From a virus: a DNA stretch of 64,000 nucleotides. The stretch lies in IMG/VR virus record IMGVR_UViG_3300022225_001767. One strand, 5' to 3'. The notes beneath the pieces are model-generated. The model saw only the letters and a program-made list of their open reading frames with translations. It ran no database searches and had not been told where the DNA came from. The position numbers were made by a program, and so were the translations under genes. Below, piece after piece: positions 737 through 61,924 of the stretch. How positions within the stretch are numbered: position 1 is the first letter of the stretch; every line of letters starts with the position of its first letter.

Positions 737-822
737 CCATCAATTTGTGGCCTGTGTTTGTTGACACAGGCTGTGTTTGTTGTTAATATAATAACCGTCA
801 ACACAACAACAGGAATGCACAC

Positions 823-1065
823 ATGAAAGTATCTCGTTTACTTGAACTCAACGAAGACCGTCGCATGAAAAAGGCGAAAACGGAAGACTTGCACGGTACG
901 GTAACGGTCTCTGATACGCTCGCTTGCTTGGACACCTATACGTTCATCAGACAAAAAGAAGAAGGCTTCTACTTGCTGAACGTTGACCCCCTCAGCGAAG
1001 AAATCACCAGCATTCTGGTTAAATCAGAGTTCCTCAGTGCAGACGTGCTGGCTATCTTTAAATAG
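823..1065 (+). CDS. Hypothetical protein
   Basis: Follows repeat 761; AGGA RBS. Confidence 0.8.
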   Translation: MKVSRLLELNEDRRMKKAKTEDLHGTVTVSDTLACLDTYTFIRQKEEGFYLLNVDPLSEEITSILVKSEFLSADVLAIFK

Positions 1066-1132
1066 CCACTTCGTTTTACGCTACAGCTAGGCGCTTCGGC
1101 GCCTTCACAGTCTCATTGATAAAGGGAACGCC

Positions 1133-1624
1133 ATGTATAAGCATGTCACCGTTACGCTCATTCGCGCATTTTTTGCCAACGTTAAATCATTAGCTGTATT
1201 GGTTAACCGAGTGCCTGTCTTAACCTCAGATCAAGTGGGGGATGACGAGGTCTTTGAGCGTTTAGCATCGACGCTGATCGCCCGGTTAAAGGAAGCCCAT
1301 AGTCATGTGGACTACGGCATCTACGACGTCATTATGAGTACGACATCAGCAGAAGTGGATTGGGTTAAAACCATCGACTACCTCACAGAGAAGAACATAC
1401 CGCCCACATCGTCTGATACCGCCATGTATGTCAAAGAAGTCACGGTCACCGATCCTGACACGCAACTTCCCGTCGACATCGTTATCTACAAAGACCGTGG
1501 TACTGACGCCATGTTTGGCGTGGACAGCGCATACATATCAAGGCTCGGAGACGATGAAGGCGTGATCAGCCCTGTTAGCGGAAAAGGTGTTATTCTCGTT
1601 GAGCCAGAAGAAACCTCTTCCTAA
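1133..1624 (+). CDS. Hypothetical protein
   Basis: AGGGA RBS; 163 aa. Confidence 0.8.
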   Translation: MYKHVTVTLIRAFFANVKSLAVLVNRVPVLTSDQVGDDEVFERLASTLIARLKEAHSHVDYGIYDVIMSTTSAEVDWVKTIDYLTEKNIPPTSSDTAMYVKEVTVTDPDTQLPVDIVIYKDRGTDAMFGVDSAYISRLGDDEGVISPVSGKGVILVEPEETSS

Positions 1625-1726
1625 CGAGCAGCGACAAGACGAACCAAGCCACCGTCAGCCTTTTTAATTAGACCATGGCGACACAGCACACACTGTGATT
1701 GCCATGACTCCTACGGAGCCTTTGTT

Positions 1727-2197
1727 ATGTATATCACGACTTACGAAACGCGACACTTTGAGTTTATTGCCGTAGGCACCACGCCTGAGAGCGCCAAGAC
1801 TGGACTGGACAGTGCCGTTCAGCGCCACGGTAAGATCTACCCTGACTGCAACGCAGAAGAACTGTTAAACGACATTAGAGATGACGGCGTTAACCTCTAC
1901 TTTATCCCCTGCGGAGAAGGCATCAATATGCTTTCTTCAGACTGCGAGACATTTAACGGCCCGCATAACAATGTCAGCGTTCCGTTAACCATTAACATCT
2001 ATAACGGCATAACGCCAACCAACCCAGCGCCAACGCAACGCTGCATCCCGCTTCATGGTGTTAGCGACATGCTGAGTCATGCGTCCCAATTACTTGCTGC
2101 ACGAAAGGCGTTACGTGAAGGGCGTATAACCGAAGCCGCATTCGATGCACTGTTCGATGAACTTGATGAGTCATTGTCGACATACTTGTCTGAATAA
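1727..2197 (+). CDS. Hypothetical protein
   Basis: GGAG RBS; 156 aa. Confidence 0.8.
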   Translation: MYITTYETRHFEFIAVGTTPESAKTGLDSAVQRHGKIYPDCNAEELLNDIRDDGVNLYFIPCGEGINMLSSDCETFNGPHNNVSVPLTINIYNGITPTNPAPTQRCIPLHGVSDMLSHASQLLAARKALREGRITEAAFDALFDELDESLSTYLSE

Positions 2198-2260
2198 ATT
2201 TTGTTGCACTTTGTCAAATTTATTGATATATTTAAACTGTCAACACAACAGGAGAGAAAC

Positions 2261-2458
2261 ATGCACCTTAGTCAACTTATCGACAACGCTTGCGAGGCTG
2301 TAACCAACATTAACCTTACGCTGCAAAAAAGCAAGATGGCGCTCATGTCAGATGCCTCATTCACACAAGAGCAAAAGCAAGCCATTTTAACAATGCTGGA
2401 GCCAACTGAAAGCGCAATATCACAAGCTACTCAAAGCTTCGTCATTTCGGAAGAGTAA
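2261..2458 (+). CDS. Hypothetical protein
   Basis: Start moved to the ATG after repeat 2204 and AGGAG. Confidence 0.8.
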   Translation: MHLSQLIDNACEAVTNINLTLQKSKMALMSDASFTQEQKQAILTMLEPTESAISQATQSFVISEE

Positions 2459-2552
2459 TCTTTCCTTAATTCACGCGACACACTTGTCGGAAATATTGAC
2501 AACGCTCTCTGACTTTGAGACGCTGACATGGTCAACACAACAGGAGAATGCC

Positions 2553-2789
2553 ATGACGCTTAATGACTTTGTCTTATCTCGCCAACGAGCAATAAGCGCT
2601 AATTTTGCATTACGTAATCGCGCTCCCTACTCCCGACAACGCAATCCTGAAAGGGTGCTTCAATGGCGTGCGCAGCAGCGTGCTACAATACGCCGTTTCA
2701 TCCAGGAAGTCAGGCTTTCGGAAAACAAAGATACCGCTCATATCATGAGTAAGGCCGTCGCCAACTTGGTGACACCTAAGTTTAACTAA
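2553..2789 (+). CDS. Basic hypothetical protein
   Basis: ATG after repeat 2496 and AGGAG. Confidence 0.8.
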   Translation: MTLNDFVLSRQRAISANFALRNRAPYSRQRNPERVLQWRAQQRATIRRFIQEVRLSENKDTAHIMSKAVANLVTPKFN

Positions 2790-2813
2790 TACGAGCAATA
2801 TGTCGGTTTCTTA

Positions 2814-2864
2814 TTGACAACACTCTCAGTTTTTGAGATACTAATCCTGTCAACACAACAGGAG
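2814..2864 (+). promoter_or_regulatory. Type copy of the repeat: sigma70 promoter with shared leader and RBS
   Basis: -35 TTGACA 2814-2819, 17 bp spacer ending TGA (extended -10), -10 GATACT 2837-2842, predicted +1 near G2849 of GTCAACACAAC, AGGAG RBS, ATG 2871. Confidence 0.9.
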
Positions 2865-2870
2865 AGAGAC

Positions 2871-3140
2871 ATGGCTTTATCTGAACAAGCAATGATCAGC
2901 AAAATCAATAAGGCGCTACCAGAAGCGAACGCCGTACCTATGGCTGAATTTTACGGCGACCCGTCACGTAAAGGCATCTGGCTACGAGGCAGCGAAGAGT
3001 TTGCATCAGATGGTTTACCTATCTTTAACGCAGGCACTATCGAGGACGCTCTGCACCCTACACTACAAGCTATCGTCGATGACAATGGCTGGTACGGCGA
3101 ACCCTATGACGGTGGCACGCTAATGCTATACAAGGTGTAG
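2871..3140 (+). CDS. Hypothetical protein
   Basis: After repeat 2814; C-terminal GWYGEPYDGGTLMLY resembles 3778..4062. Confidence 0.85.
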   Translation: MALSEQAMISKINKALPEANAVPMAEFYGDPSRKGIWLRGSEEFASDGLPIFNAGTIEDALHPTLQAIVDDNGWYGEPYDGGTLMLYKV

Positions 3141-3142
3141 CC

Positions 3143-3448
3143 GTGTGCTGGGCCACGCCTTATATCACTAAGTTGCAGCGAGGCGAAACCGTGTCGTTTC
3201 GTCCGCGAGGCAACTCAATGACAGGGCGCATATCGTCAGGACAAAAGGTCACCGTGCGCCCTCTTGGCAGCGACGAGGGCCTTAAAAAACGTGATATTGT
3301 GCTCTGTACGGTATCAGGGGTGCAGTATTTGCACCTTGTCACTGCGGTGCAGCCAGGTCGCGTCCAAATATCCAACAACCACGGCAAGGTTAATGGGTGG
3401 ACACCGATAAAAAATATTTACGGCAAGTGCATCCGCGTAGAACCGTAG
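3143..3448 (+). CDS. S24/S26 peptidase-like protein
   Basis: FRPRGNSM..I.SGQKV.V...DIVL...YLHLV; GxSM serine motif. Confidence 0.65.
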   Translation: MCWATPYITKLQRGETVSFRPRGNSMTGRISSGQKVTVRPLGSDEGLKKRDIVLCTVSGVQYLHLVTAVQPGRVQISNNHGKVNGWTPIKNIYGKCIRVEP

Positions 3449-3482
3449 GTGCACATGTTAAAAACGAGTTGAGGAAATAACG

Positions 3483-3692
3483 ATGGCGAATAAAAGACGC
3501 CCTTACGGGATTTATAAAGGCAACCCTGAACACATCTCGCCCTACGGGCCGGATGTTGCAGACTGCCAAGAGTTTCTTCCTCAGGGAGAACGCATTCGCA
3601 ACAAGAAAGCGAAACGTCGCTACCACAACAAAGTGGCACGAGCGACGGCTAAAAAAGCCATGAACGACGATGTTCGCGATAGCTTTTCTTGA
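3483..3692 (+). CDS. Small basic hypothetical protein
   Basis: GAGGA RBS. Confidence 0.7.
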   Translation: MANKRRPYGIYKGNPEHISPYGPDVADCQEFLPQGERIRNKKAKRRYHNKVARATAKKAMNDDVRDSFS

Positions 3693-3777
3693 TTTTTCTG
3701 GATGTTCTTCACGCGATTATTGACAAAAAACACAGCTTTTGCAATACTCGCTCTGTCAGCACAACAGAGGAAATATT

Positions 3778-4062
3778 ATGGTCTTACGCAACATCCCAAC
3801 GGTCTACATATCCGTACTTGAAAATGGCACTTTCAATATGGTCGACCGTCATGTAAATTTTCGTGTAGGCGACGAGGGGCAACTTTTTTGTTCAGACATC
3901 GACGCCATCAGCTACGATTGCGAAGTCAGAGGCTATCAGTGGATTGCCCCTGCACTTGAACAATGGGCAAAGAAGCAAAAGGGCTACTGGGAATGGGAGA
4001 ATGCGGAAACTATTGTTTTCGTACACGAAAGTGATCAGGTTCGTTTTCGAGCCCCACAATAA
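3778..4062 (+). CDS. Hypothetical protein
   Basis: After repeat 3720; GAGG RBS. Confidence 0.8.
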   Translation: MVLRNIPTVYISVLENGTFNMVDRHVNFRVGDEGQLFCSDIDAISYDCEVRGYQWIAPALEQWAKKQKGYWEWENAETIVFVHESDQVRFRAPQ

Positions 4063-4112
4063 ACAATGAGGGGGGCACCCCTTATTCAATCTATGCAAAA
4101 TAAGGTTTATCT

Positions 4113-4484
4113 ATGAACAACGCATCACAACCACAGGGCGACACCCTTTATCTTAGCCGACAGATTGCCGCACGCCTCACCGATTTCGTCAAGGCAACCA
4201 AATCGCCCATTATTATCACCAACCCGTGGTTGGCTCAGGCGCTGTTTATGCTAAAGCGAACATTGCCGCTTCGTTATGATAACGCGCCATATGCTGATTT
4301 AGAGTACTTGTTTACGCAATACCCTGGCTTCTCTATTGCATTTGTTAACGAAAACATTGCAATTGGATGGGAAGGTTGCAACGACAACCCCTTAATACCC
4401 ATTGACCTTGCGACGTTAGGTAATATGCTTTGCCCTACATCACGGGCGACGCTGCGAAGCATCATTGATTTGGATGAACAATAA
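4113..4484 (+). CDS. Hypothetical protein
   Basis: TAAGG RBS. Confidence 0.75.
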   Translation: MNNASQPQGDTLYLSRQIAARLTDFVKATKSPIIITNPWLAQALFMLKRTLPLRYDNAPYADLEYLFTQYPGFSIAFVNENIAIGWEGCNDNPLIPIDLATLGNMLCPTSRATLRSIIDLDEQ

Positions 4485-4834
4485 TGTCACGACTATCATC
4501 TAAAGCGATAAACGCCTTTCTCAGCGAGAACTTTGGAGGTGAACTCTCTGCTAATGTGGCCGCCAGCACGACATCTGAACTCGTTCAGATCATGACGGAT
4601 GCAGGCATCCCACCCGGCGAACCCGAAAATGACAGCGTGCTTTTAAGCGATATTCGCGATGTCATCGTTGAGCTTGCGGCAGTATACGAGTGTTTGCTTA
4701 ACACGACGAACACGGGCGCGCCACTGGCAATTGACATCCCCTCAATAGAGACACCATTAGGGCAGCGTATCAACGACATCTTACCTCGCCCAGGTGAAAC
4801 CCCTAACATCAACGATAACAAAGGCAGAGATTAA
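4484..4834 (+). CDS. Hypothetical protein
   Basis: TAATG stop/start coupling. Confidence 0.75.
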   Translation: MSRLSSKAINAFLSENFGGELSANVAASTTSELVQIMTDAGIPPGEPENDSVLLSDIRDVIVELAAVYECLLNTTNTGAPLAIDIPSIETPLGQRINDILPRPGETPNINDNKGRD

Positions 4835-4835
4835 C

Positions 4836-5114
4836 ATGGGCCCTTACGACAACGAGACCGGCAAGTACCTCTTTGACAATGATATTATGTCAGCACACTG
4901 GCTTTACCATGATGACAGTGAATCACTGTATATTATCGGGCGTGATGAGCACGGCTTTGAAGGCTATGGCAATGATGATGACATCGAGGCGGCGCTTTTT
5001 GCGCTTACTGACAGCGAGTTAGACAATGACGCGCTCATGGAAAGCAAAGGCTTTACGCTTGTGCCAGACCCGCTACGCCGCTTTGGTGTGAATGAAGGTT
5101 ATTACGCGGCATAA
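4836..5114 (+). CDS. Acidic hypothetical protein
   Basis: ATG directly after the upstream stop; D/E rich. Confidence 0.75.
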   Translation: MGPYDNETGKYLFDNDIMSAHWLYHDDSESLYIIGRDEHGFEGYGNDDDIEAALFALTDSELDNDALMESKGFTLVPDPLRRFGVNEGYYAA

Positions 5115-5203
5115 CGTTGCAAGAGGCGGCCTTTTGCCTAATTTACTTGACAACGCTCACACCATTTGAGATACTTGTCTTGTCAACACAACAGGAGGCC
5201 GTC

Positions 5204-5425
5204 ATGCCGTCAATATGCAAATACTGTAATCAACCCGTTATCCTTTCACCTTCAGCGTCAGAACGCGCAAAGAAGAGTGATAAGCCGGCATCGTATTACA
5301 CTGCGCTTTTTCCCAATCACTCTGAATGTGAAGTGGCTGCGAGAAGTGCAGGCTCTGTTGCGCTAATGCGCAGTATCAAAAAGCAGCGTGCTGCCGAGCG
5401 CGTCACTTATCCACTTGGGCAGTAA
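5204..5425 (+). CDS. Small hypothetical protein with CxxC...HxxC
   Basis: After repeat 5147; AGGAGG RBS. Confidence 0.8.
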   Translation: MPSICKYCNQPVILSPSASERAKKSDKPASYYTALFPNHSECEVAARSAGSVALMRSIKKQRAAERVTYPLGQ

Positions 5426-5450
5426 GCTGCCCTCACAAGGAATCTCAATC

Positions 5451-6071
5451 ATGAACGAAAAACGCTACTTTTACTTTGTCAGCACGCCTGATGCAGCCAA
5501 AGCGATATTGAGTAACTTTGATGCCAACATCGCCCCTAAGCGTGATGAAATTGTGAACTCGCTTTATATCGAAGCCGGTGGTGCCGTCGCGCATACTGAA
5601 GCGTCCAACTGGGGCAGGGCGTCTAGCATTCGCTATTTGGTCTACCCCGTCGCTCACCCAATTGTGTCTGCCTCGCACATTAAAGTCCATGACACCCGTG
5701 AGCATAACGGTGAGAAAGTGGCGATTGTCGGTGGCAAAGGCAATCATAAGCTTGGTAAGGCACTGAACGCCCTTGTTGCCAAAGCCAATGACGCACTGAC
5801 CGAGTATCCGTACCTTAGCGACTGGTTTATTTCTTCTAATAACCTGATGCGAACCATGATTGGCGATCGCGTGCCTAACAGCAGCGCCAGTTCAATGATA
5901 TCGACAAACTTCGGTATTGCCAAAGATGATAATGGCGAGGATGTTGCTGTGCTTCGCGTGCCCAAGTACACCGAGCGCACGGGCGATGCCCCGCCTGTTG
6001 ACGAGCCCGTTGATGTGCCGGAAGGTTTTAGTGAGATCACGTATGGTCAGTTTTTCGACCTCGTCAACTAA
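5451..6071 (+). CDS. Hypothetical protein
   Basis: AAGGA RBS; 206 aa. Confidence 0.8.
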   Translation: MNEKRYFYFVSTPDAAKAILSNFDANIAPKRDEIVNSLYIEAGGAVAHTEASNWGRASSIRYLVYPVAHPIVSASHIKVHDTREHNGEKVAIVGGKGNHKLGKALNALVAKANDALTEYPYLSDWFISSNNLMRTMIGDRVPNSSASSMISTNFGIAKDDNGEDVAVLRVPKYTERTGDAPPVDEPVDVPEGFSEITYGQFFDLVN

Positions 6072-6202
6072 TCCTCACCGCACTCGTGCATCGAACAAAC
6101 AAAGCCATCTTGATTGATGGCTTTGTTTTATTGCATACAAAAGCTTGACAACACTCACCGTTTTTGCGATACTAAACCTGTCAACACAACCGAGGAAAAA
6201 CG

Positions 6203-6709
6203 ATGGAACATCTCAAAACTATTTTTGGCTCAGTTCTACTTTTTGGCGCTATTGCTTATGGCGCATCAGCGTTCCCCGCTAAACAAGACAATACGTTTGG
6301 GCACGTTGAGTTAGGTCAGGCGACCAATGTCCCTAACGTCGTAGATGGCGTGCTGTATCAATCAACACCTGCCATTGCCTTTCCGACCACAACGGACAAG
6401 CGCCTTACGGCGTTCTTACCGACGGGCATTGAAGGCAAGGTCACAGCCGTCAAAGGACAGTCAGGGAAGTATGTGCCGGTCAAGGTTGACTACAACTTAT
6501 CGTATCGTTACGACGATATACAAAGCTGCCAAGATGCCATGCGTCTTATCCGCACGCGTTATGCGTCAATGGGGATTGCAAAGCAATCGCTTGAATTGGA
6601 CGGTTGTACGCAAAGTCTTGATGGTAGAGCGTTCAAAAAACCCATCACCTTAACAGTATCACAGCGTATCCACGACAGTCTTTTTGTCGACATCATCACG
6701 CGCACCTAG
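6203..6709 (+). CDS. Exported hypothetical protein
   Basis: After repeat 6145; signal peptide ending ASA. Confidence 0.8.
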   Translation: MEHLKTIFGSVLLFGAIAYGASAFPAKQDNTFGHVELGQATNVPNVVDGVLYQSTPAIAFPTTTDKRLTAFLPTGIEGKVTAVKGQSGKYVPVKVDYNLSYRYDDIQSCQDAMRLIRTRYASMGIAKQSLELDGCTQSLDGRAFKKPITLTVSQRIHDSLFVDIITRT

Positions 6710-6771
6710 CGTCACGAGGCAGGGCACACGCCCTGCCACTATCAACCAGTATCAAAGAGCGATTTTTTGTT

Positions 6772-6924
6772 ATGAATAACGTTGAACGTGAGCGCCGTGA
6801 GCGCAACTTTCTTGCTGAATGCGGCTTTGATTTAGACAACGGTTACTTTAGTGAAGATGTTGATTTTTGGCGACGCCAAGAACCCTCACTGTACGAATAC
6901 CATATAAAAAACCCCCTTGCTTAG
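6772..6924 (+). CDS. Small hypothetical protein (50 aa)
   Basis: Own translation MNNVERERRERNFLAECGF... Confidence 0.5.
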   Translation: MNNVERERRERNFLAECGFDLDNGYFSEDVDFWRRQEPSLYEYHIKNPLA

Positions 6925-6938
6925 CACGACTGAATTTT

Positions 6939-7196
6939 ATGAACAATCAAGTAGCAAAACTCATATCAGAACTACTGTCATCCACGTTTAAGCGCACAGA
7001 GAAGTGCATTGATGGACACCACGGCAAGGCGCTGATTGATGCATTGAAGGCGCAAGGTGTTCGTTCTGTACGTAACACTGCGGGAGAGCGACGTGACAAT
7101 ATCAATGCAACATTAAATGCCAGGTATGCGACGTTTACAATCACAGAGTCTACTTGTATGGGACCATTCACTGCCATAGTGATGCAGAAACACTAA
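6939..7196 (+). CDS. Hypothetical protein
   Basis: ORF in the gene run; start uncertain. Confidence 0.6.
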   Translation: MNNQVAKLISELLSSTFKRTEKCIDGHHGKALIDALKAQGVRSVRNTAGERRDNINATLNARYATFTITESTCMGPFTAIVMQKH

Positions 7197-7337
7197 CTTA
7201 ACGTGAGCTGCTCAGCGAGGGCAGAGAGTGGACAAAAATCGGCTTCCACTAGAAACGCCAATAGACTCTAGTTTTGTCAATACGGTGTCGCTACCTTTTT
7301 GACAAGATTACCCGTCAAGTTAACCAAGGACACATTC

Positions 7338-7637
7338 ATGAAAAAAGCAAAACCAAGTGGATTTTACGATCTAGAAAACCCAGAGCAGTTTAATGACTTT
7401 CAAAATAGCCTTACCCCATACGCCCAAGATGATGCTATGGGAGGCGTTTACGGGATTGAACTTGGAAAGACAGCAGAAAGAATTGAATTAGATAACCTAT
7501 ATTCACTTTCTCAAATTCAAGAGTCGAAATTTGACTTGATTATTGTTGATTACGGTAATAGCGCAGGTGATGCTTCTAAACTATTTATTAATATCAGCAC
7601 TTTATCTGCTTTCTGGCTAGATGAAAGCCCGCTTTAA
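7338..7637 (+). CDS. Hypothetical protein, AT-rich
   Basis: AAGGA RBS. Confidence 0.7.
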   Translation: MKKAKPSGFYDLENPEQFNDFQNSLTPYAQDDAMGGVYGIELGKTAERIELDNLYSLSQIQESKFDLIIVDYGNSAGDASKLFINISTLSAFWLDESPL

Positions 7638-7704
7638 ATAGTTGAGAGCCTCATTGAGACGCTTTTTCTTTTTTATCAACATAGGCGTACATCAAGGAAA
7701 CAAC

Positions 7705-8133
7705 ATGAATACTGAAACGCAACGCATCATCAACGTAGGCAATTGGACACTTGTTATCAACCAGAATGAAGGACAGAGTGCAGAATCGCCACGCGAAGAC
7801 GTCGTGTCGTGTATCGTGACTCACAACAGCTTCACACCGGTGGTAGACACCGATCAAGATATTGGCGCTGAAGATGAATTGGGCTATCGCCTCACCGCGA
7901 AAGCGATTGAGCGCAAGTATGATGTTGAGGGTGAAGCACGCCTTGACCAAATATGCGAGAACGTTTCCGCGTTTGGCCTTACTTTTTCTATTGTGATAGA
8001 CAGTGATGAACACTTCAATTTATATGTGAAAGCGGTGTGTGAAAAACGAGACGTCAAGCATGTCAGCATCGATGATGGCAATGACGCGGTGCCACCTTGT
8101 GAACTAATGATAGGTGTTGCTTGTTCTCGTTAG
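7705..8133 (+). CDS. Hypothetical protein
   Basis: AAGGA RBS. Confidence 0.75.
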   Translation: MNTETQRIINVGNWTLVINQNEGQSAESPREDVVSCIVTHNSFTPVVDTDQDIGAEDELGYRLTAKAIERKYDVEGEARLDQICENVSAFGLTFSIVIDSDEHFNLYVKAVCEKRDVKHVSIDDGNDAVPPCELMIGVACSR

Positions 8134-8216
8134 CGTTTTAATACGCCATCGCCATTGACAACACACTCACCTTGTGAGATACTCTTTTCTGTCAACACAG
8201 CAAAGGAAAAACACGT

Positions 8217-8987
8217 ATGCATCCCATCTTATCATCACTGTCATTAACTGCGAATGAACGTGGCACAAAAGCTTTTGTGGCCGCATTTTCAGATACACCA
8301 GACGGTATGTCACTTTCAGCATCTGGCACAGTGACAGGCGCGTCTAGCCAAGCCCCAGACAAGCTTACTATGATGGCAGCGCTTCTTTTTTCAGAGGTAG
8401 ATAATGTGGGTGGCTTTTCGATTACCGTAGAGCAGTGGGCCCACGATAACACTTCTGATGATGAAACCACACAGTTGCGTGTATGCGTTGCCGACGATTC
8501 AGGTGACAACACAGCGACATTTACGCTTGGTTTTCGCGACCCCAACAACGAGTTAAACGCATTAAGCCGCATGGTGTCAGTCAGTTCGCTGGCAATGGTT
8601 GAGGCATGGTGTCAATACGTGGTGGATGCGGACATTATTTCACAGGATGTCTACCGCTCAACACTACTGCTTGGGCTTCAAATCCGTGGCCTATGGCGCA
8701 AAGATGATATGCCACTGGCTGAACTGGTGAACGAATGCAAAGATGCCGACCCCGTTTTGTTTCATGCCACTACGGATGAATTGCGAGAGGCCGCTGTCCG
8801 TCGTATGCGCCATGTGCTTGTTACGGATGCGATGCCGAGCTTTGACGTTATGGAGCTTAAGCTTTACGTTGACCGCTGTGAGCAAACGATTAATATGCGT
8901 GACATTAGTTCGCAAAAGAAGCCCTTTTTCCTGTCTGACCGTCGCCAGCACATTGGTAAAAAAGCGCGCCGTATGCATCGCGGCTAG
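8217..8987 (+). CDS. Hypothetical protein
   Basis: After repeat 8155. Confidence 0.85.
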   Translation: MHPILSSLSLTANERGTKAFVAAFSDTPDGMSLSASGTVTGASSQAPDKLTMMAALLFSEVDNVGGFSITVEQWAHDNTSDDETTQLRVCVADDSGDNTATFTLGFRDPNNELNALSRMVSVSSLAMVEAWCQYVVDADIISQDVYRSTLLLGLQIRGLWRKDDMPLAELVNECKDADPVLFHATTDELREAAVRRMRHVLVTDAMPSFDVMELKLYVDRCEQTINMRDISSQKKPFFLSDRRQHIGKKARRMHRG

Positions 8988-9070
8988 TCGTGCGAGGGCG
9001 TTGTTTTCATTGACAACGCCCTCACACCATGAGATACTATTCCTGTCAACACAGCAAAAGGAATACCTCT

Positions 9071-9511
9071 ATGTCTACGACGAAAACAATGGCTTACGCG
9101 GATGCGTTAGCGATAAAAATTCTTGCAGCTAAAGCATTAGGTCAAGAGACCACCTGCCATGACATTGCAACAAAACAATTGCAATGTGAGACGCTGCACC
9201 CTATGGATGGCGCTCGATTAGAACGCGAAGCCACGGCCATTCACAATGCGCTTGCGGCCAACGAAGCCAAGATGAAAGAAGCCAACCTTGTTGCACAGCG
9301 CCTCGCCGTTGAATACGGTTTTGCTCAAGCTTCAACCTCATACTTAATCTCAGATATTGATTATGATGAGGGCCATGATGCATTACCCACCTCACTTACC
9401 ATGACGCTGGATACGCCGTTGGACGGAGAAGCGCTTCAAGAACGTGCCTCCGACTTTATCTCAAACGAAACCGGCTTTTGTCATAACGGCTTTAGCGTTT
9501 CACTGGCATAG
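9071..9511 (+). CDS. Hypothetical protein
   Basis: After repeat 9010. Confidence 0.85.
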   Translation: MSTTKTMAYADALAIKILAAKALGQETTCHDIATKQLQCETLHPMDGARLEREATAIHNALAANEAKMKEANLVAQRLAVEYGFAQASTSYLISDIDYDEGHDALPTSLTMTLDTPLDGEALQERASDFISNETGFCHNGFSVSLA

Positions 9512-9523
9512 GAGGAGTACATT

Positions 9524-9760
9524 ATGTCACCTTTGAATGCATACCTTGACCACCTCAACAAACGTCAAGCTTTCTTTAATGCTAAACCTTACACCTTACC
9601 TGACGACGCGGTGCGTGTATTGCAAACGGTGGAGTGTGATCTCAGCCCTGAAAACCTTCATGCTGACGGTGAACGTTCACGCAGTGATGTCAAAGCACGA
9701 CGCGACTTTTTAGAGCGGGTTAAGCAAGAGATTGACGACATGCTTCAAACGACAGCCTGA
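9524..9760 (+). CDS. Hypothetical protein (LSPENLHADGE)
   Basis: AGGAGG RBS. Confidence 0.8.
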   Translation: MSPLNAYLDHLNKRQAFFNAKPYTLPDDAVRVLQTVECDLSPENLHADGERSRSDVKARRDFLERVKQEIDDMLQTTA

Positions 9761-9861
9761 TTCGAGATTGTCGAACACATCAACACAAAAATGTGATACC
9801 TTCTTTATATCATTTTTATGCCACTGCTGACGGTGGCATTTTCATTTACTGAGGAATAAAT

Positions 9862-10482
9862 ATGGTTAAACTACGCACTGACAACATTAACCCAAAACAT
9901 CTTGCGCACATTGTGTGTGTTGACGCTATGCATTTTGTAAACCGCAGCGAAGATGGTTTTTGCGACTTCACGCTAGAACCAGGCGATATCATCATTGCAC
10001 GCCGCCACGAGCTTGAAAGAGATTATCGCTTCCGTCAAGTTATGCCTATGCTGGTGTTTACGCACAAGGGCAAAATCTGGGCATATCGCCGCACTGAAAA
10101 AGGCGGTGAAAAGGGGCTTCATAACAAGGTTGCTGTGGTGGTGGGCGGTCATTTTGACCTTGGCGACCTAGTGTATGATAAAAGTGTCATTGATCTTGAA
10201 AAGTCACTTGAGAACGCTACTGCGCGTGAAATTGACGAAGAGGTCTTATTGAATGGGGCCAACGTGGTGAGTCAAACCAAGTTGGACAAAGTGATCACTG
10301 CTGATGAGACCGGTGTTGATGCGAAACACGTTGCCTTGGTTACGATGATAGAGCTTGATGCCATGACGGTAGAAAGCAAAGAAGACGAGCTTGAGTCTCT
10401 CGGCTTCTTTTCGCCTGATGAACTGCTCAATGGCGACTATGCCCTCGAAACGTGGGCGACCATGATTTGCAAAATGATGTAA
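9862..10482 (+). CDS. NUDIX-family phosphoesterase (COG4112-like)
   Basis: E..Y.FRQVMP, YRR..KGGE..LH.K..V.VGGH, and Nudix-box-like REIDEE. Confidence 0.8.
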   Translation: MVKLRTDNINPKHLAHIVCVDAMHFVNRSEDGFCDFTLEPGDIIIARRHELERDYRFRQVMPMLVFTHKGKIWAYRRTEKGGEKGLHNKVAVVVGGHFDLGDLVYDKSVIDLEKSLENATAREIDEEVLLNGANVVSQTKLDKVITADETGVDAKHVALVTMIELDAMTVESKEDELESLGFFSPDELLNGDYALETWATMICKMM

Positions 10483-10632
10483 GATAAAAAACGCATCGCT
10501 AAAGTAACGCGGCATAGGTCGCGTTACTATTCTTGATTATTTACAATAATAAAAACCACCTTCACCTCGCCGCACTTGACAAAATTCACACGCTTTGAGA
10601 CACTTATACAGTCAACACAACGGAGAGAACAC

Positions 10633-42447: not shown

Positions 42448-42448
42448 A

Positions 42449-52183: not shown

Positions 52184-52190
52184 CCTCTTT

Positions 52191-52244
52191 TTGGTGCTGT
52201 GCTGACATACACACCCTGCCCGCCACGCGCGGGCTTTTCTCTTT
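52191..52244 (+). ncRNA. Hairpin plus terminator module, copy 3
   Basis: TTGGTGCTGTGCTGACATACACACC..GCCCGCCACGCGCGGGC-TTTT. Confidence 0.55.
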
Positions 52245-52331
52245 CTTAACATTGGTTATTTTCAATTTTAACATTGACTTAACCCTGATTATAAGAGACA
52301 ATAAACAGGTCAACACAACAAGGTATACTCC

Positions 52332-53108: not shown

Positions 53109-53195
53109 TATCTGCATGAATTTTCTTGGCTGTGTTGACAACGCACTCAGACTTTGGGATACTAACACTGTCAACACAACCAAGGAGAAAGCCTC

Positions 53196-53351: not shown

Positions 53352-53551
53352 GAAAAGGCTCATAAGAGCCGTTTCTTCACGCATTACAAAATCGCAAAAG
53401 CGAATATAGATATGTGGTGATACGTTGCAAAGAAGACGATTGCCAACTCGCCTTTTTTTGCATATAAAACAAACACCAATCACTTTTTGTATTGACAACA
53501 CTCTCAGCTTTTGAGATACTAACCCTGTCAGCACAACTTAGGAGCATCACC

Positions 53552-53893: not shown

Positions 53894-54002
53894 ATATGAG
53901 GTGCGCGGCTGGTTAATTATGGGTCAGCCGCATTTTCTATTGACAACACTCTCAGAGTTTGAGATACTTATCTTGTCAGCACAACATTAAAGGTATATCA
54001 CA

Positions 54003-54908: not shown

Positions 54909-54989
54909 ACATAATGCAAAAAAACATTGACAACGCTCTCAGCTTTTGGGATACTGTTCCTGTCAGCACAACAACACAGGAACAGTACC

Positions 54990-55538: not shown

Positions 55539-55609
55539 ACGCAAAACCCATTGACAAAAAACACAGATTTTGAGATACTGTTCCTGTCAGCACAACACGG
55601 GTTACCACC

Positions 55610-56547: not shown

Positions 56548-56622
56548 TTACGGCACACTATTGACAACCCTCTCATATCTGTGAGAGGATTATTTTCGTC
56601 AACACAACAACGAGAATGCATT

Positions 56623-57186: not shown

Positions 57187-57201
57187 CACGCTTTAGTTTC
57201 A

Positions 57202-57254
57202 CCTTGGTGATGTGCTGACACACTCACCCAAGCCCGCCATGCGCGGGCTTTTTT
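57202..57254 (+). ncRNA. Hairpin plus terminator module, copy 4
   Basis: CCTTGGTGATGTGCTGACACACTCACC..GCCCGCCATGCGCGGGC-T6. Confidence 0.55.
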
Positions 57255-57267
57255 GACTCTTTTTTGG

Positions 57268-57487
57268 TTGACTTTATCGCTTTAGTTGGTATAATTAACT
57301 TCAATATTTAGGTGATTCGGCCTAGATGTTACCAAGCGTATAACGGCGCGGATTGCTTCACCCTCCAGGCGACTGGCACGGCATCACGTTAACACACAAT
57401 CTACAGTATGTTTCTTTGCAGCATTATTCACAATGGCCGCACAGGACAACGGGTGAACTCTTATGTATCGGTCAATTGAGGATAATT
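57268..57487 (+). promoter_or_regulatory. Box-less promoter with ~185 nt structured leader
   Basis: TTGACT-N16-TATAAT with TG extension; AATATTTAGG/CCTAGATGTT stem. Confidence 0.6.
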
Positions 57488-58267
57488 ATGTCAACGCTAC
57501 AACAAAAACTTCGCACGCTTATCAGCCAACACAGCGATGGCCCTCGCGCCTTTGCTTCTTTGCTTTCCGCATCGCATAATGCCTTCTTTGGAACACCACT
57601 TAACGAGTCTAAATCCAAGGCATTTGGTGCAGTGATAGCAGGCGTTAAAAACGCCCACGTGTTCTCATCCCTCACCAACACCGAGTCAGCAGTAACACGC
57701 ACCACATCTTCGCTTATTAGTATCTGCTCGCGCACCCACGACCACCTCTATGGCGAAGGATATTTCGACTTTTACTACCCTGTTTTCACTTGCGATGAGA
57801 CGTCGAACTCTGTGGGGATATTTACAACGGCCCATATGGATGATGATGAGTTGTGCGTCAGAGTGACCCAATCCATTAAAGCGTTTGATGATCAAATAGG
57901 TGAGTTTGTTGAATGCGTGCTAGCACCTTGCGGCGCAACCTGTAGCATGAAGCTTATTAGTACAAATGGCGGCAACTCCCGTCTAATTTTCCGTATTGAT
58001 TACCTTAACGAAGATGCGCAGCAACGCTTGCAGGAAGCCACGCAGCCCGACATCGTCAAAACCGCCGAGTTATGTGCGCGCGCTAAACAAGAGCCTAAGC
58101 GATGTAATGTGAGTTATGCATCCACATCCGCTCTCAGGGCGATGCAGACGCTGGAACTTTCTCGCATTATTGAGGCTATTGGTGCCATACCGCATCCTGA
58201 CTTTACCACACATCAAAGCCACCTCGCTTTGTTTGATGGTTACGTTCCTTACAAGGCATTGGCGTAA
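57488..58267 (+). CDS. Hypothetical protein of the structured-leader class
   Basis: GAGGA RBS; KAFGAVIAGVKNAH. Confidence 0.75.
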   Translation: MSTLQQKLRTLISQHSDGPRAFASLLSASHNAFFGTPLNESKSKAFGAVIAGVKNAHVFSSLTNTESAVTRTTSSLISICSRTHDHLYGEGYFDFYYPVFTCDETSNSVGIFTTAHMDDDELCVRVTQSIKAFDDQIGEFVECVLAPCGATCSMKLISTNGGNSRLIFRIDYLNEDAQQRLQEATQPDIVKTAELCARAKQEPKRCNVSYASTSALRAMQTLELSRIIEAIGAIPHPDFTTHQSHLALFDGYVPYKALA

Positions 58268-58374
58268 TCGCGTACACTGCGGGTTGAGGCGTTCCTCAGC
58301 CTGCAAAAAAACATTGACTTAGCACACAGGCTTGTTACACTGTTCTTAGTCAGCACAACAAGCAGGTAACCCGC

Positions 58375-59379: not shown

Positions 59380-59459
59380 GCAACCATATTTCTTTTTTGT
59401 TGACAACTAACACAGCATTTGAGACACTATTTCTGTCAACACAACAACGGAACCGCATC

Positions 59460-59978
59460 ATGAAAATACTCACACTTTCTGCAAACGACATCCATACGCT
59501 TGCGGCCAATGTTAACGCGTTTAAAGAGACCATCCGCAAGCGCGCAAAGAAAATACCAAAGGGCTACGGCAATACACCAACGGAACGCACCGCAAAAATC
59601 AACGCTATGGCGCGCACGCAAGCGCTATACACCTTGCTGGCGAACCACGACCTTGCTGCCATTGAAAAGATCGAAGACGACCGCTCAGCCAGCGAATTTG
59701 CCAACGATCTTTTCTCAGCTGACAATCATCCTGACATGCACCCTTCAACCTTGTCGCGCCAACGCAATGCACTTGAGAAAAGAGTTGAAGAGGTGGGCCT
59801 TTTTACGGTGGAGCTTATTGTCAATGGTGAGAGCATTAGCGCAATTGGCGGTTTCGTTGGTGATGACTTTTATGGCTCTGGCTACGATGATGACTTCTAC
59901 CGCGAAGCCATTGAATTGCTTTCCGATGAATACAAGAACTTCATCGAAAGCGCACAAGCCGTCCTTGACGTCATCTAA
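59460..59978 (+). CDS. Hypothetical protein
   Basis: After repeat 59400. Confidence 0.85.
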   Translation: MKILTLSANDIHTLAANVNAFKETIRKRAKKIPKGYGNTPTERTAKINAMARTQALYTLLANHDLAAIEKIEDDRSASEFANDLFSADNHPDMHPSTLSRQRNALEKRVEEVGLFTVELIVNGESISAIGGFVGDDFYGSGYDDDFYREAIELLSDEYKNFIESAQAVLDVI

Positions 59979-60058
59979 CTAAGTGCCACACCTCCTCATC
60001 TCGCCTTATTAGTGAGATGAGGGGGCCTGTCAGCGCAACATTATAAGGAAACGCCACT

Positions 60059-60475
60059 GTGAGTTATATGTCTGACTTCAGTCACCTACAAGCGCCTAGA
60101 ACGCGTATTGAACGACAATTTAACGCCGCTGCCAGCGCACTAGTTAAGCTGGTGGAACGTAAAGCATGGCGTAGCCGACCGCTAGCTACGCTTGGCGCGT
60201 GCGCCCTCGTATACTGGGCCAACACCGCGTTTGCTCTGTTATTTTGTACAATGGGGCTGTACCCACTTATTGTGCTTCAAGCTATTCCGTCCTTTGAACA
60301 GCACCCCGTGCTAGTCTCTTTTATACTTTGTCACGGCATGACCGCCGCAATGAGTGGCCTTACTTACAGCATTGACAGAAAACGTCGCCATGCGGATGCG
60401 TCGCTGCGATACAACGCTTGGCGAGAAAGTGAAATGAGACGTCAATCACTCTACCTTAATTACCATCAACGATAA
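60059..60475 (+). CDS. Two-TM membrane protein
   Basis: TAAGGA RBS; half-repeat CTGTCAGCGCAAC at 60027. Confidence 0.7.
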   Translation: MSYMSDFSHLQAPRTRIERQFNAAASALVKLVERKAWRSRPLATLGACALVYWANTAFALLFCTMGLYPLIVLQAIPSFEQHPVLVSFILCHGMTAAMSGLTYSIDRKRRHADASLRYNAWRESEMRRQSLYLNYHQR

Positions 60476-60486
60476 GGCCGTCAACC

Positions 60487-61161
60487 ATGACCATCAAAGA
60501 CAACGCCCTATTCACAGAAAACACCTTGCTTGGCTTTTTCCTTGCGCGTATTGCAGGTGACAGCGGTGAGTCTATCGCTACCATCGTAAACAGCGTGCTA
60601 AGTGAAGCGTCTGTCCATTACCTTGAGGACTCGGTGTGGTCTATTGAGACCAGCAATGAAGATAATGACAACGCGTTACTTAGCAGTGAAGATGTTTTAG
60701 GTATCATCGATGATGCGCTCAGCGATGATGTGGAGAAGCTGCTTTCTACTATTCACGAATATACCGATTTGACCGTTGTTCGTGTCGATGGCGGCTTCCG
60801 CGTACAATCCTCTATCACTGGCATTGCGAAAAATCCACCACTGCAAGGCAAAGCGACGGTGCTGGAGACATCAAGTGGACGTGTATGGTGTACCGTCACA
60901 GATGAGAGCAGTCTCATTATGATAGGTCACCAGATGTACAACGCACTAAGAGAGCCTAACTTTGCAAAAATGTACAGCGGTCGAATGCGGCTCTTTTTCT
61001 TGATGGAAAAAAGCAGCGATAAGGTTCTCGTCAATGCCTCTTTTGATAAAATCGATCTCAAAGAAGGTATGATATTGGGGCCAAAAAACATGCCTTATAA
61101 CTCGCAGTACGAAGACGACGTAAAGCAACTTCGCGATTACGTTGCAAAATTAGAAATATAA
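60487..61161 (+). CDS. Acidic protein with degenerate PcfJ-like C-terminus
   Basis: SLIMIGHQMYNAL...Y....RLFFL...GPKN. Confidence 0.7.
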   Translation: MTIKDNALFTENTLLGFFLARIAGDSGESIATIVNSVLSEASVHYLEDSVWSIETSNEDNDNALLSSEDVLGIIDDALSDDVEKLLSTIHEYTDLTVVRVDGGFRVQSSITGIAKNPPLQGKATVLETSSGRVWCTVTDESSLIMIGHQMYNALREPNFAKMYSGRMRLFFLMEKSSDKVLVNASFDKIDLKEGMILGPKNMPYNSQYEDDVKQLRDYVAKLEI

Positions 61162-61287
61162 GATAGGGCGGAATCTAGCTACCAATCCTTTCAACGGCGA
61201 GTGTTGTCATAATAGGTAAAACTTTATTGACAACACTCTCAGTCTTTGGGATAATAACTCTCGTCAACACAACAACGGAGTTTATCC

Positions 61288-61698
61288 ATGCCAGAACAAA
61301 CCATCACCCCTGACTTTGATGCCGCGTTAAAAGAATTTGGCTACTTTGACGACAGCACCACCGTGATTAAATTGTCTTTAAAGATGAGTGGATTAACTGA
61401 GCAGCCCGCGTTCAGCTATCAACCGACGCCTACGCCTGGTCTCACATGGGGCAAAGATGAAGTTTGCATAAACGGTTCTCGCGTCCAGAAATCATCGCTT
61501 TACGTTCCTGGTCTTACACGCTTTGAAGATCCTTTGCCCTTTCATTATACGCCAAACCTTTACGTGTACACGACGCCTGCGCTTAAAACGCAAGCGATTG
61601 CTGATATGAAGCAGGGGATGCGCGCTATTCTTACTCGCAAGAAGATGGAAGCCGAACGCCTCATTGCGGCCTTTGACGAGGCGATAGATAGCCTGTAA
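61288..61698 (+). CDS. Hypothetical protein
   Basis: After repeat 61227; C-terminal helix AIADMKQ resembles 29270. Confidence 0.8.
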   Translation: MPEQTITPDFDAALKEFGYFDDSTTVIKLSLKMSGLTEQPAFSYQPTPTPGLTWGKDEVCINGSRVQKSSLYVPGLTRFEDPLPFHYTPNLYVYTTPALKTQAIADMKQGMRAILTRKKMEAERLIAAFDEAIDSL

Positions 61699-61924
61699 CC
61701 TATAGGGTGGCGTACGTGCTGTGCGTCACCGCAACCAACACTTATACGATCGATAAGGAGAGTATGCTATGACGTTCGCCTCAGATGAACATCACTTGGA
61801 TGACAACACCCCTGTAAGCCTACCATCTTGGTAGGCTTTTTGGCTTTTCTCACACAAAAAACTTGACAATCCACACAGTTTTTGCGATACTGATCCTGTC
61901 AACACAACAACGAGAGAATATATC

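Follow-up and report, generated by a model that had tools for sequence, protein, structure and literature searches.

Plasmid global regulons and phage early-promoter arrays are the known systems closest in kind to the locus described here. In the former, a plasmid global repressor such as ArdK acts at CUP sites (PMC6289460). A further relevant architecture is that of the PeSLs of T4-type phages, which comprise about 50 sigma-70 consensus promoters per genome with AT-rich upstream sequence, often with a stem-loop between -35 and -10, and which lie before ORFans in hyperplastic regions (PMC2839356, PMC4122927). At the level of the message, ACA motifs upstream of the Shine–Dalgarno (SD) sequence act as translation enhancers, which GcvB silences through its GU-rich region (PMC3879156). 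Here, we analyze a stretch of 64,000 nucleotides (henceforth the window) that contains 57 near-identical promoter-leader units. The explanation that best accounts for the whole, to which we assign a probability of roughly 60%, is an element-specific regulatory cassette made of a promoter, a repressor dyad and an antisense-targeted leader.

A promoter-leader unit repeated across the window

Curation of the whole window yielded 57 units, 55 on the plus strand and two on the minus strand (12051–12097 and 25524–25574). Together they run from 761 to 61908, a block of about 61 kb with one unit per 1.07 kb. The original prediction of about 57 copies between 761 and 61907, with the same strand distribution, was thus reproduced. 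The promoter part consists of an A/T-rich upstream tract, a -35 hexamer, a 17-bp spacer, a TGn extended -10 and a -10 hexamer beginning with G. It is followed by an 11-nt box, GTCA[A/G]CACAAC, that had been placed about 7 nt after the -10. The canonical geometry, in which a -35 hexamer, a 17-nt spacer ending in TGn, a -10 hexamer and 6 nt precede the box, occurs in 44 of the 57 units, and the conserved block has sharp edges at about -41 and about +12. Allowing up to one mismatch, the 11-base box has 65 matches in the window versus 3.5 ± 1.8 in shuffled sequence, and a strict composite pattern matches 32 times versus none in 100 shuffles. A search by -35 and -10 alone, blind to the box, recovered 44 extended -10 promoters on the plus strand; 42 of them carry the box with at most one mismatch 6–7 nt behind the -10, and the remaining two carry it with two mismatches. 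Sigma-70 transcription usually starts 6–7 nt downstream of the -10. The beginning of the box is therefore the expected transcript start, and all unit mRNAs would open with the same leader. From the first base of the box to the start codon, 55 of the 56 units with an assigned start span 22–30 nt (median 25), and the remaining one spans 44 nt. These data bear out the proposal of a large, co-oriented set of near-identical sigma-70-type promoters with one common predicted mRNA 5' end.

Units are given below with the start of the gene behind them in parentheses and lie on the plus strand unless stated otherwise; A and G boxes are named after their fifth base. Canonical units with an A box are found at 2814–2859 (2871), 5147–5192 (5204), 6145–6190 (6203), 10576–10621 (10633), 13138–13183 (13198), 18336–18381 (18398), 18807–18852 (18867 and 19431), 21025–21070 (21090), 21485–21530 (21549), 26246–26291 (26304), 32008–32053 (32067), 33000–33045 (33059), 37456–37501 (37518), 39085–39130 (39143), 39597–39642 (39656), 45849–45894 (45911), 53135–53180 (53196), 59400–59445 (59460) and 61863–61908 (61925). 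Canonical units with a G box lie at 31308–31353 (31367), 45020–45065 (45082), 47193–47238 (47252), 47614–47659 (47674, encoding a YfbR-like HD phosphohydrolase), 49900–49945 (49961), 50678–50723 (50741), 51497–51542 (51560), 53492–53537 (53552), 53940–53985 (54003), 54927–54972 (54990) and 55551–55596 (55610). Further units carry an A box at 2496–2541 (2553), 13530–13575 (13591), 20036–20081 (20096), 25625–25671 (25685), 29211–29257 (29270) and 61227–61273 (61288), or a G box at 3720–3765 (3778) and 49239–49285 (49301). The A box bears the change A10>G at 8155–8201 (8217), 9010–9055 (9071), 14238–14283 (14300) and 27076–27121 (27136), and C8>T at 41847–41892 (41907). The unit at 56561–56608 (56623) has an A box and an 18-nt spacer with a 7-bp palindrome. 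A doubtful unit at 59993–60039 (60059, GTG start) has a 9-bp hairpin, no recognisable -35 or -10, and a G box with A7>G. Overall, single-base box variants comprise A5>G in 15 units, A10>G in four, and the C8>U and A7>G changes.

Behind the units lie small ORFans that are unrelated to one another; a Pfam match exists for about 7 of 103 genes, and there are only four small paralogue groups. Spacer type and box variant are freely reassorted among units, and similarity between units does not fall with distance. Given the sharp edges of the conserved block, the unrelated genes, the few paralogues and the distance-independent similarity, gene duplication does not account for the repeats.

Box, spacer dyad and antisense complements

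The original prediction held that the box outlasts the -10 even in divergent copies and is an independent module, and about ten units with a different -35, spacer or -10 support both points, retaining the box or its first nine bases intact. An A box follows a divergent -10 at 761–807 (823) and, on the minus strand, at 12051–12097 (12038); a divergent -35 and -10 at 2211–2249 (2261) and 44413–44458 (44473); a short spacer and divergent -10 at 28382–28425 (28438); a divergent spacer at 30390–30435; and a divergent spacer and -10 at 33606–33651 (33665) and 52274–52319 (52332). A G box follows a divergent -35 and -10 at 58314–58359 (58375). In the minus-strand unit at 25524–25574, which precedes a PcfJ-like gene starting at 25512, the -35 is different, the -10 matches the consensus, and the distance from the -10 to the box is 11 nt instead of 6 nt. 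The reverse case, a canonical promoter with a decayed box, occurs twice, at 22101–22146 (two mismatches; gene 22160, GTG start) and at 40195–40240 (last two bases degenerate, 44-nt leader; gene 40274).

Within the spacer, a dyad CnCA-N5-TGnG is centred at -18. Among 44 units, complementarity holds in 93% at the pair -24/-12, in 93% at -22/-14 and in 84% at -21/-15; all five pairs are present in only 9 of the 44, and no covariation between the arms was detected. The right arm overlaps the extended -10, and the dyad would explain the G at -12, which is found in 40 of 44 units and is not the sigma-70 optimum. In sequence L001, the counterpart of the 30390 unit retains the -35, the -10 and the first eight box bases, with 8 of 17 spacer bases differing. 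The dyad is probably where a dimeric repressor encoded by the element binds; a search of the window proteins revealed neither a repressor nor an HTH protein. A terminator function of the dyad was ruled out, as it is too short and has no T-run.

The leaders contain 3.1 ACA motifs per unit versus 0.8 before other genes, and complements of the leader occur in the same window. On the plus strand, ten complements of the box core were found versus about 1.6 expected, nearly all of them intergenic. The clearest antisense copy would be a candidate anti-leader RNA at 19846–19992 (plus strand), in which two GC-clamped hairpins precede an intrinsic terminator. Its loop 2 (19908–19921) is a perfect 14-of-14-nt complement of the leader of six units, with a chance expectation of about 0.0005 for such a 14-mer in the window, and loop 1 (19853–19870) is complementary to 16 of 17 nt of the longer leader type. 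Every single-base box variant (A5>G, A10>G, C8>U, A7>G) stays paired with loop 2 through G-U wobble. The fold z-score of the candidate is only -1.8, and neither an Rfam family match nor a promoter of its own was found for it. It falls within the untranslated 3' end of one of the regulon's own operons (unit 18807, genes 18867 and 19431), so the regulon would limit itself. A transcript from the unit at 18807–18852 would run into these antisense loops. Four hairpin-plus-terminator modules on the plus strand (40117–40170, with a 9-mer complementary to the G box, 42447–42500, 52187–52240 and 57200–57254) have the complementary 9-mer half buried in a stem. The arrangement resembles GcvB, whose GU-rich region silences ACA leaders, in that GU-rich loops of the element are complementary to an ACA-rich leader. 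Antisense copies of the box would be the most concrete mechanism on offer.

An analogous cassette in a conjugative Alteromonas plasmid

The nearest relative found is pAMCP48-600, a conjugative 600-kb plasmid of cultured Alteromonas mediterranea (PMC5217437). Homologues of 17 window proteins, at 23–62% identity, are encoded within 200 kb of this plasmid. It carries a cassette of its own, in which the SD is preceded, in order, by a -35, a perfect palindrome of 13 bp with its centre at -18, a -10 and a CA-rich box; the -10 and the spacer differ from those of the window cassette. The palindrome has 83 sites versus 4 in the control, 73 of the 83 lying within 190 kb, and its centre is present in both orientations, as expected of a protein site. 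Five of seven orthologues of unit-headed window genes, including that of gene 32067, follow the plasmid's own cassette. Across the 200 kb examined, antisense copies of its box were not found. The position of its perfect palindrome, likewise at -18, is the basis for reading the window dyad as a repressor site, although the dyad arms are 2 bp further apart than in pAMCP48-600 and the two need not bind homologous proteins.

Because the cassette spreads over about 190 kb in the relative, it looks like the standard promoter of a whole accessory module, not of a leading region of limited extent. The window yielded no ard, psiB, ssb or other establishment gene, and neither an oriT nor a regulator was located. 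The burst-expressed host-takeover or establishment region suggested originally would rest on analogy, and a pulse of expression after transfer would be possible. Between the plasmid and phage analogues that had been offered, the plasmid fits better, given a conjugative relative and two marker proteins that favour conjugative plasmids.

Alternative explanations and the role of the cassette

Recombination alone could account for much of the pattern: the units would be strong constitutive promoters without a dedicated regulator, kept uniform by gene conversion and serving as crossover points for ORFan shuffling, with box and spacer conserved only as a homology tract. The match to PeSL architecture (consensus promoters, AT-rich upstream sequence, ORFans behind; PMC2839356, PMC4122927), the free reassortment of spacer types and box variants with distance-independent similarity, and the presence of each element's own cassette before orthologous genes, as concerted evolution predicts, all agree with it, as does the mosaic relation of L001 to the window, in which identity is 100% in some stretches and about 87% in others. 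However, the identity breakpoints of that mosaic are not at units, and the box persists downstream of promoters with no homology tract in common. Nor would gene conversion lead one to expect hairpin loops with exact complements of the leader, and the dyad is no terminator. Gene conversion alone could maintain the uniformity, and the explanation is compatible with the cassette; as a replacement for it we consider it unlikely. A giant-phage early or host-takeover region, whose units host RNA polymerase would read right after infection as in T4, is far less probable still. Phage early regions typically hold co-oriented small ORFans with strong consensus promoters, window proteins match about 20 PHROG families (nucleotide-metabolism enzymes included), and contigs of up to 486 kb carry window proteins. 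Yet neither of two large queries matched any of 50,697 phage records at the DNA or protein level, none of 2.9 million IMG/VR contigs contains the corrected composite pattern, and the window has no tRNA or virion genes. The PcfJ-like protein matches three conjugative-plasmid records and no phage record, the YfbR-like protein matches 838 plasmid records (794 conjugative) and 10 phage records, at least one of which is not phage, and the window shares 17 proteins with the conjugative Alteromonas plasmid (PMC5217437).

Two further explanations concern what reads or blocks the promoter. The box might be a DNA operator, with a repressor on its first six bases, an inverted copy of the -35, blocking RNA polymerase at +1 and perhaps bridging the -35 and +1 half-sites. 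In nearly all units positions -1 to +4 mirror the -35 hexamer as a perfect 6-bp inverted repeat, and this mode of action is known from plasmid global repressors, ArdK at CUP sites among them (PMC6289460). We nevertheless regard an operator as doubtful: compact palindromes of the half-site are missing from the window, about 35 bp separate the two half-sites, the upstream arm is nothing more than the sigma-70 -35, and the extra G that completes the 6-bp half-site is present in only nine units. Conservation also runs five bases past the half-site into the ACA-rich tract, the half-site is broken in the G variant (15 units) while wobble pairing with the antisense loop is kept, and one unit has its box 11 nt, not 6 nt, from the -10. 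It is similarly hard to credit, and more so, that an element-encoded sigma-70-family factor reads the promoters instead of, or besides, the host housekeeping sigma, with the G at -12, the C at -8 and the spacer bases as specificity determinants. Positions outside the standard sigma-70 contacts are indeed strongly conserved, and pAMCP48-600 encodes a divergent 515-aa sigma-70-family protein (only region 2 detected) beside its transfer genes. Against this, the housekeeping sigma would find a nearly ideal -35, spacing and extended -10, the pAMCP48-600 cassette has a different -10 and spacer, and the window encodes no sigma-like protein.

We therefore favour the regulatory cassette. The 57 repeats would be its copies, placed at the head of almost all transcription units in an accessory ("plasmid") module; the replicon that carries this module would be an uncultured marine megaplasmid of about 0.5 Mb and a relative of pAMCP48-600. 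A near-consensus sigma-70 promoter would be joined by the dyad at -18, the probable site of an element-encoded dimeric repressor, and by the invariant 11-nt box at the predicted +1, which would place an ACA-rich, unstructured 22–30-nt leader on all mRNAs. The ACA motifs of this leader most likely enhance translation initiation, and its exact sequence is most likely the landing site for GU-rich antisense loops of the same element. With its shared promoter and message start, the set looks like an address through which accessory genes could be switched plasmid-wide.

Anatomy of the repeated promoter-leader unit

The 11-base box GTCA(A/G)CACAAC occurs 65 times in the window at no more than one mismatch, against 3.5 matches expected. 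When all matches were inspected with their flanks, a single composite emerged that recurs nearly letter for letter: an A/T-rich tract, a consensus -35, a 17-bp spacer ending in TGn, a -10 that starts with G, six further bases and the box, followed by a purine-rich SD and nearly always ATG (GTG in two cases). Curation yielded 57 of these promoter-leader cassettes, here termed units and named by start coordinate. With 55 on the plus and 2 on the minus strand, spanning 761-61908 at one per 1.07 kb, they reproduce the count, strand split and range (761-61907) of the original prediction. In 55 of the 56 cases in which a start codon was assigned, it lies 22-30 nt (median 25) from the first base of the box. 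A strict form of the composite has 32 matches in the window and zero in shuffles.

To avoid circular ascertainment of the box, sites were also picked by their -35 and -10 alone. Among the 44 plus-strand sites with an extended -10 obtained in this way, 42 are followed 6-7 nt downstream by the box at no more than one mismatch; the other two carry it with two mismatches. Judged against sigma-70 promoters, 44 units show at most one mismatch per hexamer and a 17-bp spacer, a number that rises to 52 by a looser rule. T occupies -15 in 41 and G occupies -14 in 42 of the 44, with A/T enrichment at -42 to -39. As read from the DNA, the units thus resemble housekeeping promoters in hexamers, spacing, extended -10 and A/T-rich upstream tract. 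Sigma-70 promoters usually start transcription 6-8 nt after the -10, which is where the box sits, so that the box is predicted to form the first bases of the RNA, a tag shared by the mRNA 5' ends. The conserved block ends sharply near -41 and +12.

The box had been proposed to be under selection separate from that on the promoter, and this is supported by about ten units in which the -35, spacer or -10 differs and the box is retained. The clearest case precedes the minus-strand PcfJ-like gene, with a different -35, a consensus -10 and the box 11 nt behind it. In units 22101 and 40195, the canonical promoter is kept and the box has decayed. Units with G at box position 5 (G-type, n = 15; units with A there are A-type) cluster at 45-60 kb, with two outliers at 3720 and 31308. 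The genes behind the units are unrelated apart from four small paralogue groups, units far apart are no less alike than neighbours, and spacer types and box variants are shuffled against each other; gene duplication therefore does not account for the repeats. An integron cassette array was rejected: neither strand carries the attC core-site consensus, the window holds no integrase, and the repeat is a promoter facing the next gene.

ACA motifs number 3.1 per unit leader and 0.8 before other genes. Upstream of an SD, such motifs are documented translation enhancers that are silenced by the GU-rich region of GcvB (PMC3879156), which offers a reason for a CA-rich leader here and in the related plasmid described below. 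Where a cognate antisense RNA exists, it would also explain why the leader is conserved exactly.

Several local features accompany the array. In 12 units, e.g., 9010, 39085 and 54927, the 6-nt gap between -10 and box could pair with the SD region over 5-8 nt; this possible insulating hairpin in read-through RNA is in weak excess over shuffled pairings (p 0.03-0.11). At 746-775, a 12-13-bp hairpin and its T-rich tail extend over the -35 of unit 761, a terminator-over-promoter arrangement also seen in some PeSLs, the promoter cassettes of T4-type phages. A decayed unit at 42526-42585, with a good -35 and spacer start, a poor -10 and an unrecognizable box, precedes gene 42586, whose paralogues at 49301 and 56623 have intact units. 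Among the few transcription units outside the regulon is the one at 57258-57488, where a strong boxless promoter (near-consensus -35, 17 nt, consensus -10) and a leader of about 190 nt precede gene 57488.

A spacer dyad and its counterpart in a cultured relative

Within the spacer, complementarity is seen in 93% of 44 units at -24/-12, in 93% at -22/-14 and in 84% at -21/-15. These pairs belong to a dyad centred at -18 whose right arm overlaps the extended -10; it would account for the nearly invariant G at -12, which is otherwise odd. All five pairs are present in only 9 of the 44 units, and permutation tests on these units detected no covariation: the pairs are conserved without compensatory changes. 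In the one orthologous unit within a diverged stretch of L001, a 7.7-kb contig from a strain variant of the element, 8 of 17 spacer bases differ, whereas the -35, the -10 and box positions 1-8 are retained. From its symmetry and position, we predict that the dyad is probably a repressor site.

A weak match of one window ORFan led to the Alteromonas mediterranea plasmid pAMCP48-600 (NZ_CP018025.1), in which local tblastn found homologues of 17 window proteins at 23-62% identity within 200 kb. The paper on this replicon, which does not mention promoters, describes a conjugative 'chromid' whose 'plasmid module' is packed with hypothetical genes (PMC5217437). Its small co-oriented genes are preceded by a cassette of their own: a -35, five bases, a perfect 13-bp palindrome (arms of 5, A/T centre of 3) running into the -10, a CA-rich box 4-14 nt past the palindrome and -10, then SD and ATG. 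The palindrome centre is TTT or AAA, as a symmetric protein site allows. The palindrome has 83 sites in the record, whereas a reversed-pattern control has 4. Of these 83, 73 fall at 69-258 kb, where the palindrome stands between the -35 and -10 of small co-oriented genes and a CA-rich leader box often follows. Among 32 strictly spaced units, 30 are on one strand and 18 have the box, at variable distance. We interpret this pattern as an analogous regulon of about 80 sites that is new here and apparently undescribed. About 3 kb separate a T4SS/pilus cluster from the start of the cassette-rich 190 kb. Beside T4SS and type IV pilus genes (34.5-36.1 kb; L014:9543-11090 in our numbering of plasmid stretches), a 515-aa sigma-70-family protein is encoded in which region 2 only was detected, possibly a plasmid-specific sigma factor.

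The two cassettes share a -35, a dyad centred at -18 that overlaps the -10, a CA-rich box before the SD and a short leader, and both occur in dozens of strongly co-oriented copies before small hypothetical genes. The sequences differ: pAMCP48-600 has another palindrome, with arms 2 bp closer together than in the window, another -10 and another box. The best-kept part is the palindrome in pAMCP48-600, where the box is looser, and the box in the window, where the dyad is imperfect. Orthologous genes can each stand behind the cassette of their own element; for window genes that come first behind a unit and have an orthologue in the relative, this orthologue lies behind the palindrome in five of seven cases. 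The architecture would thus be inherited or convergent within a plasmid family, each element having its own sequence version.

Antisense complements of the box

On the plus strand of the window, complements of the box core occur ten times where chance predicts about 1.6, nearly all of them between genes. Two lie in minus-strand units, two over -35 regions, and the others in two kinds of element. One kind is a candidate anti-leader RNA at 19846-19992 on the plus strand, which consists of two GC-stem hairpins and a canonical terminator. Loop 1 (19853-19870) complements the longer leader type at 16 of 17 nt and loop 2 (19908-19921) the shorter one at 14 of 14, taking in the first SD bases; about 0.0005 perfect 14-mers would be expected in the window. 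Duplex energies with the leaders are -19 to -24 kcal/mol, compared with about -11 kcal/mol for control upstream regions, and the unpaired probability of the loops is 0.57-0.63 versus 0.42 overall. Folding and pairing calculations thus describe a structured, terminated RNA with an exposed seed and extended complementarity to leader 5' ends, which is predicted to repress them. No promoter was found before 19846-19992. As this stretch stands directly behind the second gene of unit 18807, the RNA would be the 3' end of a regulon transcript.

The second kind is a 50-nt module of hairpin and terminator with four copies, at 40117, 42447, 52187 and 57200, which contains a 9-mer complementary to the G variant of the box only. 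By duplex prediction, G-type leaders (-21 to -30 kcal/mol) are preferred over A-type leaders (-9 to -22 kcal/mol). Because the 9-mer is half buried, we rate these modules lower than 19846-19992 as antisense candidates. All single-base box variants are A to G or C to U and face a U or G of loop 2, so pairing would be kept by wobble. This variation, which comprises few independent events, is suggestive of the pairing model. In pAMCP48-600, the 200 kb examined hold no antisense copies of that plasmid's box. Searches against Rfam 15 (C4, GcvB and all other families) gave no window match at gathering score and, at 19700-20100, only chance-level matches, and a literature search on the box, its complement and the palindrome of the relative found nothing relevant.

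Two known antisense systems offer comparisons. The c4 antisense RNA of phages P1 and P7, a curated Rfam family, is encoded by the element that it regulates. The loops of this structured RNA base-pair to short repeated sites in the mRNA and cover a ribosome-binding site; it acts on one operon (ant). In the window, by contrast, about 57 separate mRNAs are putative targets, and there is no match to the Rfam C4 family. In GcvB, a GU-rich unstructured region of a multi-target RNA pairs with ACA-rich sequence just before the SD (PMC3879156), a likeness reflected here in leaders with about three ACA motifs and GU-rich loops. GcvB is, however, chromosomal and has diverse, non-identical targets, whereas in the window target and candidate regulator reside on one mobile element and the tag is identical and at the extreme 5' end.

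Cargo, rival readings and a proposed self-limiting regulon

The window contains about 110 ORFs, 106 on the plus strand, at one to four per unit. Pfam matches were obtained for about 7 of 103 proteins (TnpB, PcfJ-like, GmrSD_C/HNH nuclease, YfbR-like HD phosphohydrolase, DUF3268 and NUDIX). PHROGs matches were mostly to families of unknown function, and NCBIfam and PADLOC added nothing. Including ESM Atlas and PDB sequence searches with two proteins each, about 95% of the cargo remains unexplained. Anti-restriction, SSB, PsiB or similar establishment functions were not recognized among the window proteins, Pfam, NCBIfam and PHROGs revealed no ArdK-type repressor or ard gene among the 103, and neither a KorA or KorB homologue nor an oriT or relaxase was found in the window. 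A regulator search among the window genes that lack a unit found no HTH protein. The TnpB genes at 16705-17931 (minus) and 62771-64000 (plus) are only 26% identical to each other, indicating that two different IS200/IS605-type elements landed in the array. About 490 bp at 14690-15180, flanked by the gene behind unit 14238 and by gene 15183, lack a convincing ORF.

Assemblies from Tara Oceans, JGI, ENA and Logan contain more than 100 contigs, of up to 486 kb, with proteins identical or at least 90% identical to those of the window, and the element is thus widespread. The composite pattern had 0 matches in 185,579 species-representative genomes and in IMG/VR, and a search for stretches resembling positions 1-12000 of the window returned none from another genome. 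Strain variation is visible in L001, which shares 5 kb with the window as an identity mosaic of 100%, then about 87%. At 31296, the window lacks about 730 bp present in L001 (L001:6339-7071), a deletion that left only 41 codons of a minus-strand gene, immediately upstream of unit 31308. The L001 copy of the TnpB gene found at 62.7-64 kb in the window lies elsewhere, beside the equivalent of 26906. The MOBH conjugative Vibrio plasmid pAQU2 (NC_025127.1) has a long co-oriented array of small hypothetical genes at 81-106 kb with yfbR, tusA and a methylase, and repeated intergenic elements of its own (5 copies of about 82 nt; 6 copies of a 24-nt GC-hairpin motif).

The closest described architecture is that of PeSLs, about 50 sigma-70 consensus promoters per T4-type phage genome that stand before ORFans in plastic regions (PMC2839356; PMC4122927), and recombination cassettes of this type may well be part of the truth. 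Window units share this setting: they are strong sigma-70-like promoters in many copies, AT-rich on their upstream side, and they precede ORFans in plastic regions. They also have a dyad that falls between or across the -35 and -10, and an SD and start codon follow directly. The stem-loops that define PeSLs, however, are stable G/C-rich terminators or attenuators; such a stem-loop is lacking in the window units, whose dyad has 3-5 pairs and no T-run and whose intrinsic terminators are separate modules, at about 25 sites only. PeSLs have neither an invariant transcribed box nor an antisense partner, and cassettes of their type predict neither the antisense loops nor a box behind unrelated promoters. 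A T4-type genome is also not what we find: megablast with 20 kb gave no DNA match in phage and plasmid collections, the relatives are plasmids, and PcfJ-like and YfbR-like proteins point to conjugative MOBH-type plasmids and not to phages. The early region of a giant phage is another, unlikely rival. The host replicon thus reads as plasmid-like rather than as a T4-type phage. Two further rivals concern how the unit is recognized. An element-encoded sigma factor could read the units, a possibility favoured by the divergent sigma encoded in the relative, to be set beside the fit of the window units to housekeeping promoters. Alternatively, the box at +1 could act as a DNA operator; the window has no compact palindrome built from the half-site of the box.

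Repressor networks are known from plasmids, KorA/KorB of IncP-1 among them. On IncN plasmids, CUP (conserved upstream) repeats are bound by ArdK according to a secondary account (PMC6289460, citing Delver and Belogurov 1997), and the repressor network of IncW R388 gives a transcriptional overshoot upon entry into a new cell (PMC3937220). As far as these accounts go, the likeness lies in a plasmid-encoded repressor site at many promoters, with backbone and establishment genes in one regulon; those plasmids differ in having about 3-12 sites rather than 57 in 61 kb, known regulators and no common mRNA leader.

We propose that the strong promoters of the units would fire with host sigma, that the unstructured ACA-rich tag would open each mRNA and promote initiation, and that an element-encoded dimer on the spacer dyad, together with GU-rich antisense loops on the tag, would shut the block down. 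With the clearest antisense RNA itself a regulon product, the system would be self-limiting, which is compatible by analogy with the R388 overshoot (PMC3937220). In a marine gammaproteobacterial megaplasmid family, a whole accessory module (50 to >100 operons) would accordingly stand under one cassette with a repressor dyad and an identical ACA-rich 5' tag, read here by antisense loops in the 3' ends of the regulon's own transcripts, such that hundreds of kb of cargo fire as one self-limiting pulse after transfer and are cheap afterwards. We hold this reading tentatively, at a probability of about 0.35. A shared 5' tag with cognate A-type and G-type antisense RNAs would be an element-wide post-transcriptional switch for which we know of no earlier description. 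As a compact, portable strong promoter and leader with a putative antisense off-switch, the cassette is also of practical interest for marine gammaproteobacteria.

Large plasmids must silence hundreds of cargo genes once settled in a host, and still express them promptly after moving to another. To our knowledge, it is little understood how 0.5-Mb replicons manage this. In the window, sequence alone reveals the wiring, with one cassette in 57 copies over 61 kb and separable DNA and RNA handles, and the cultured relative A. mediterranea CP48 with pAMCP48-600 now opens the regulon to experiment.
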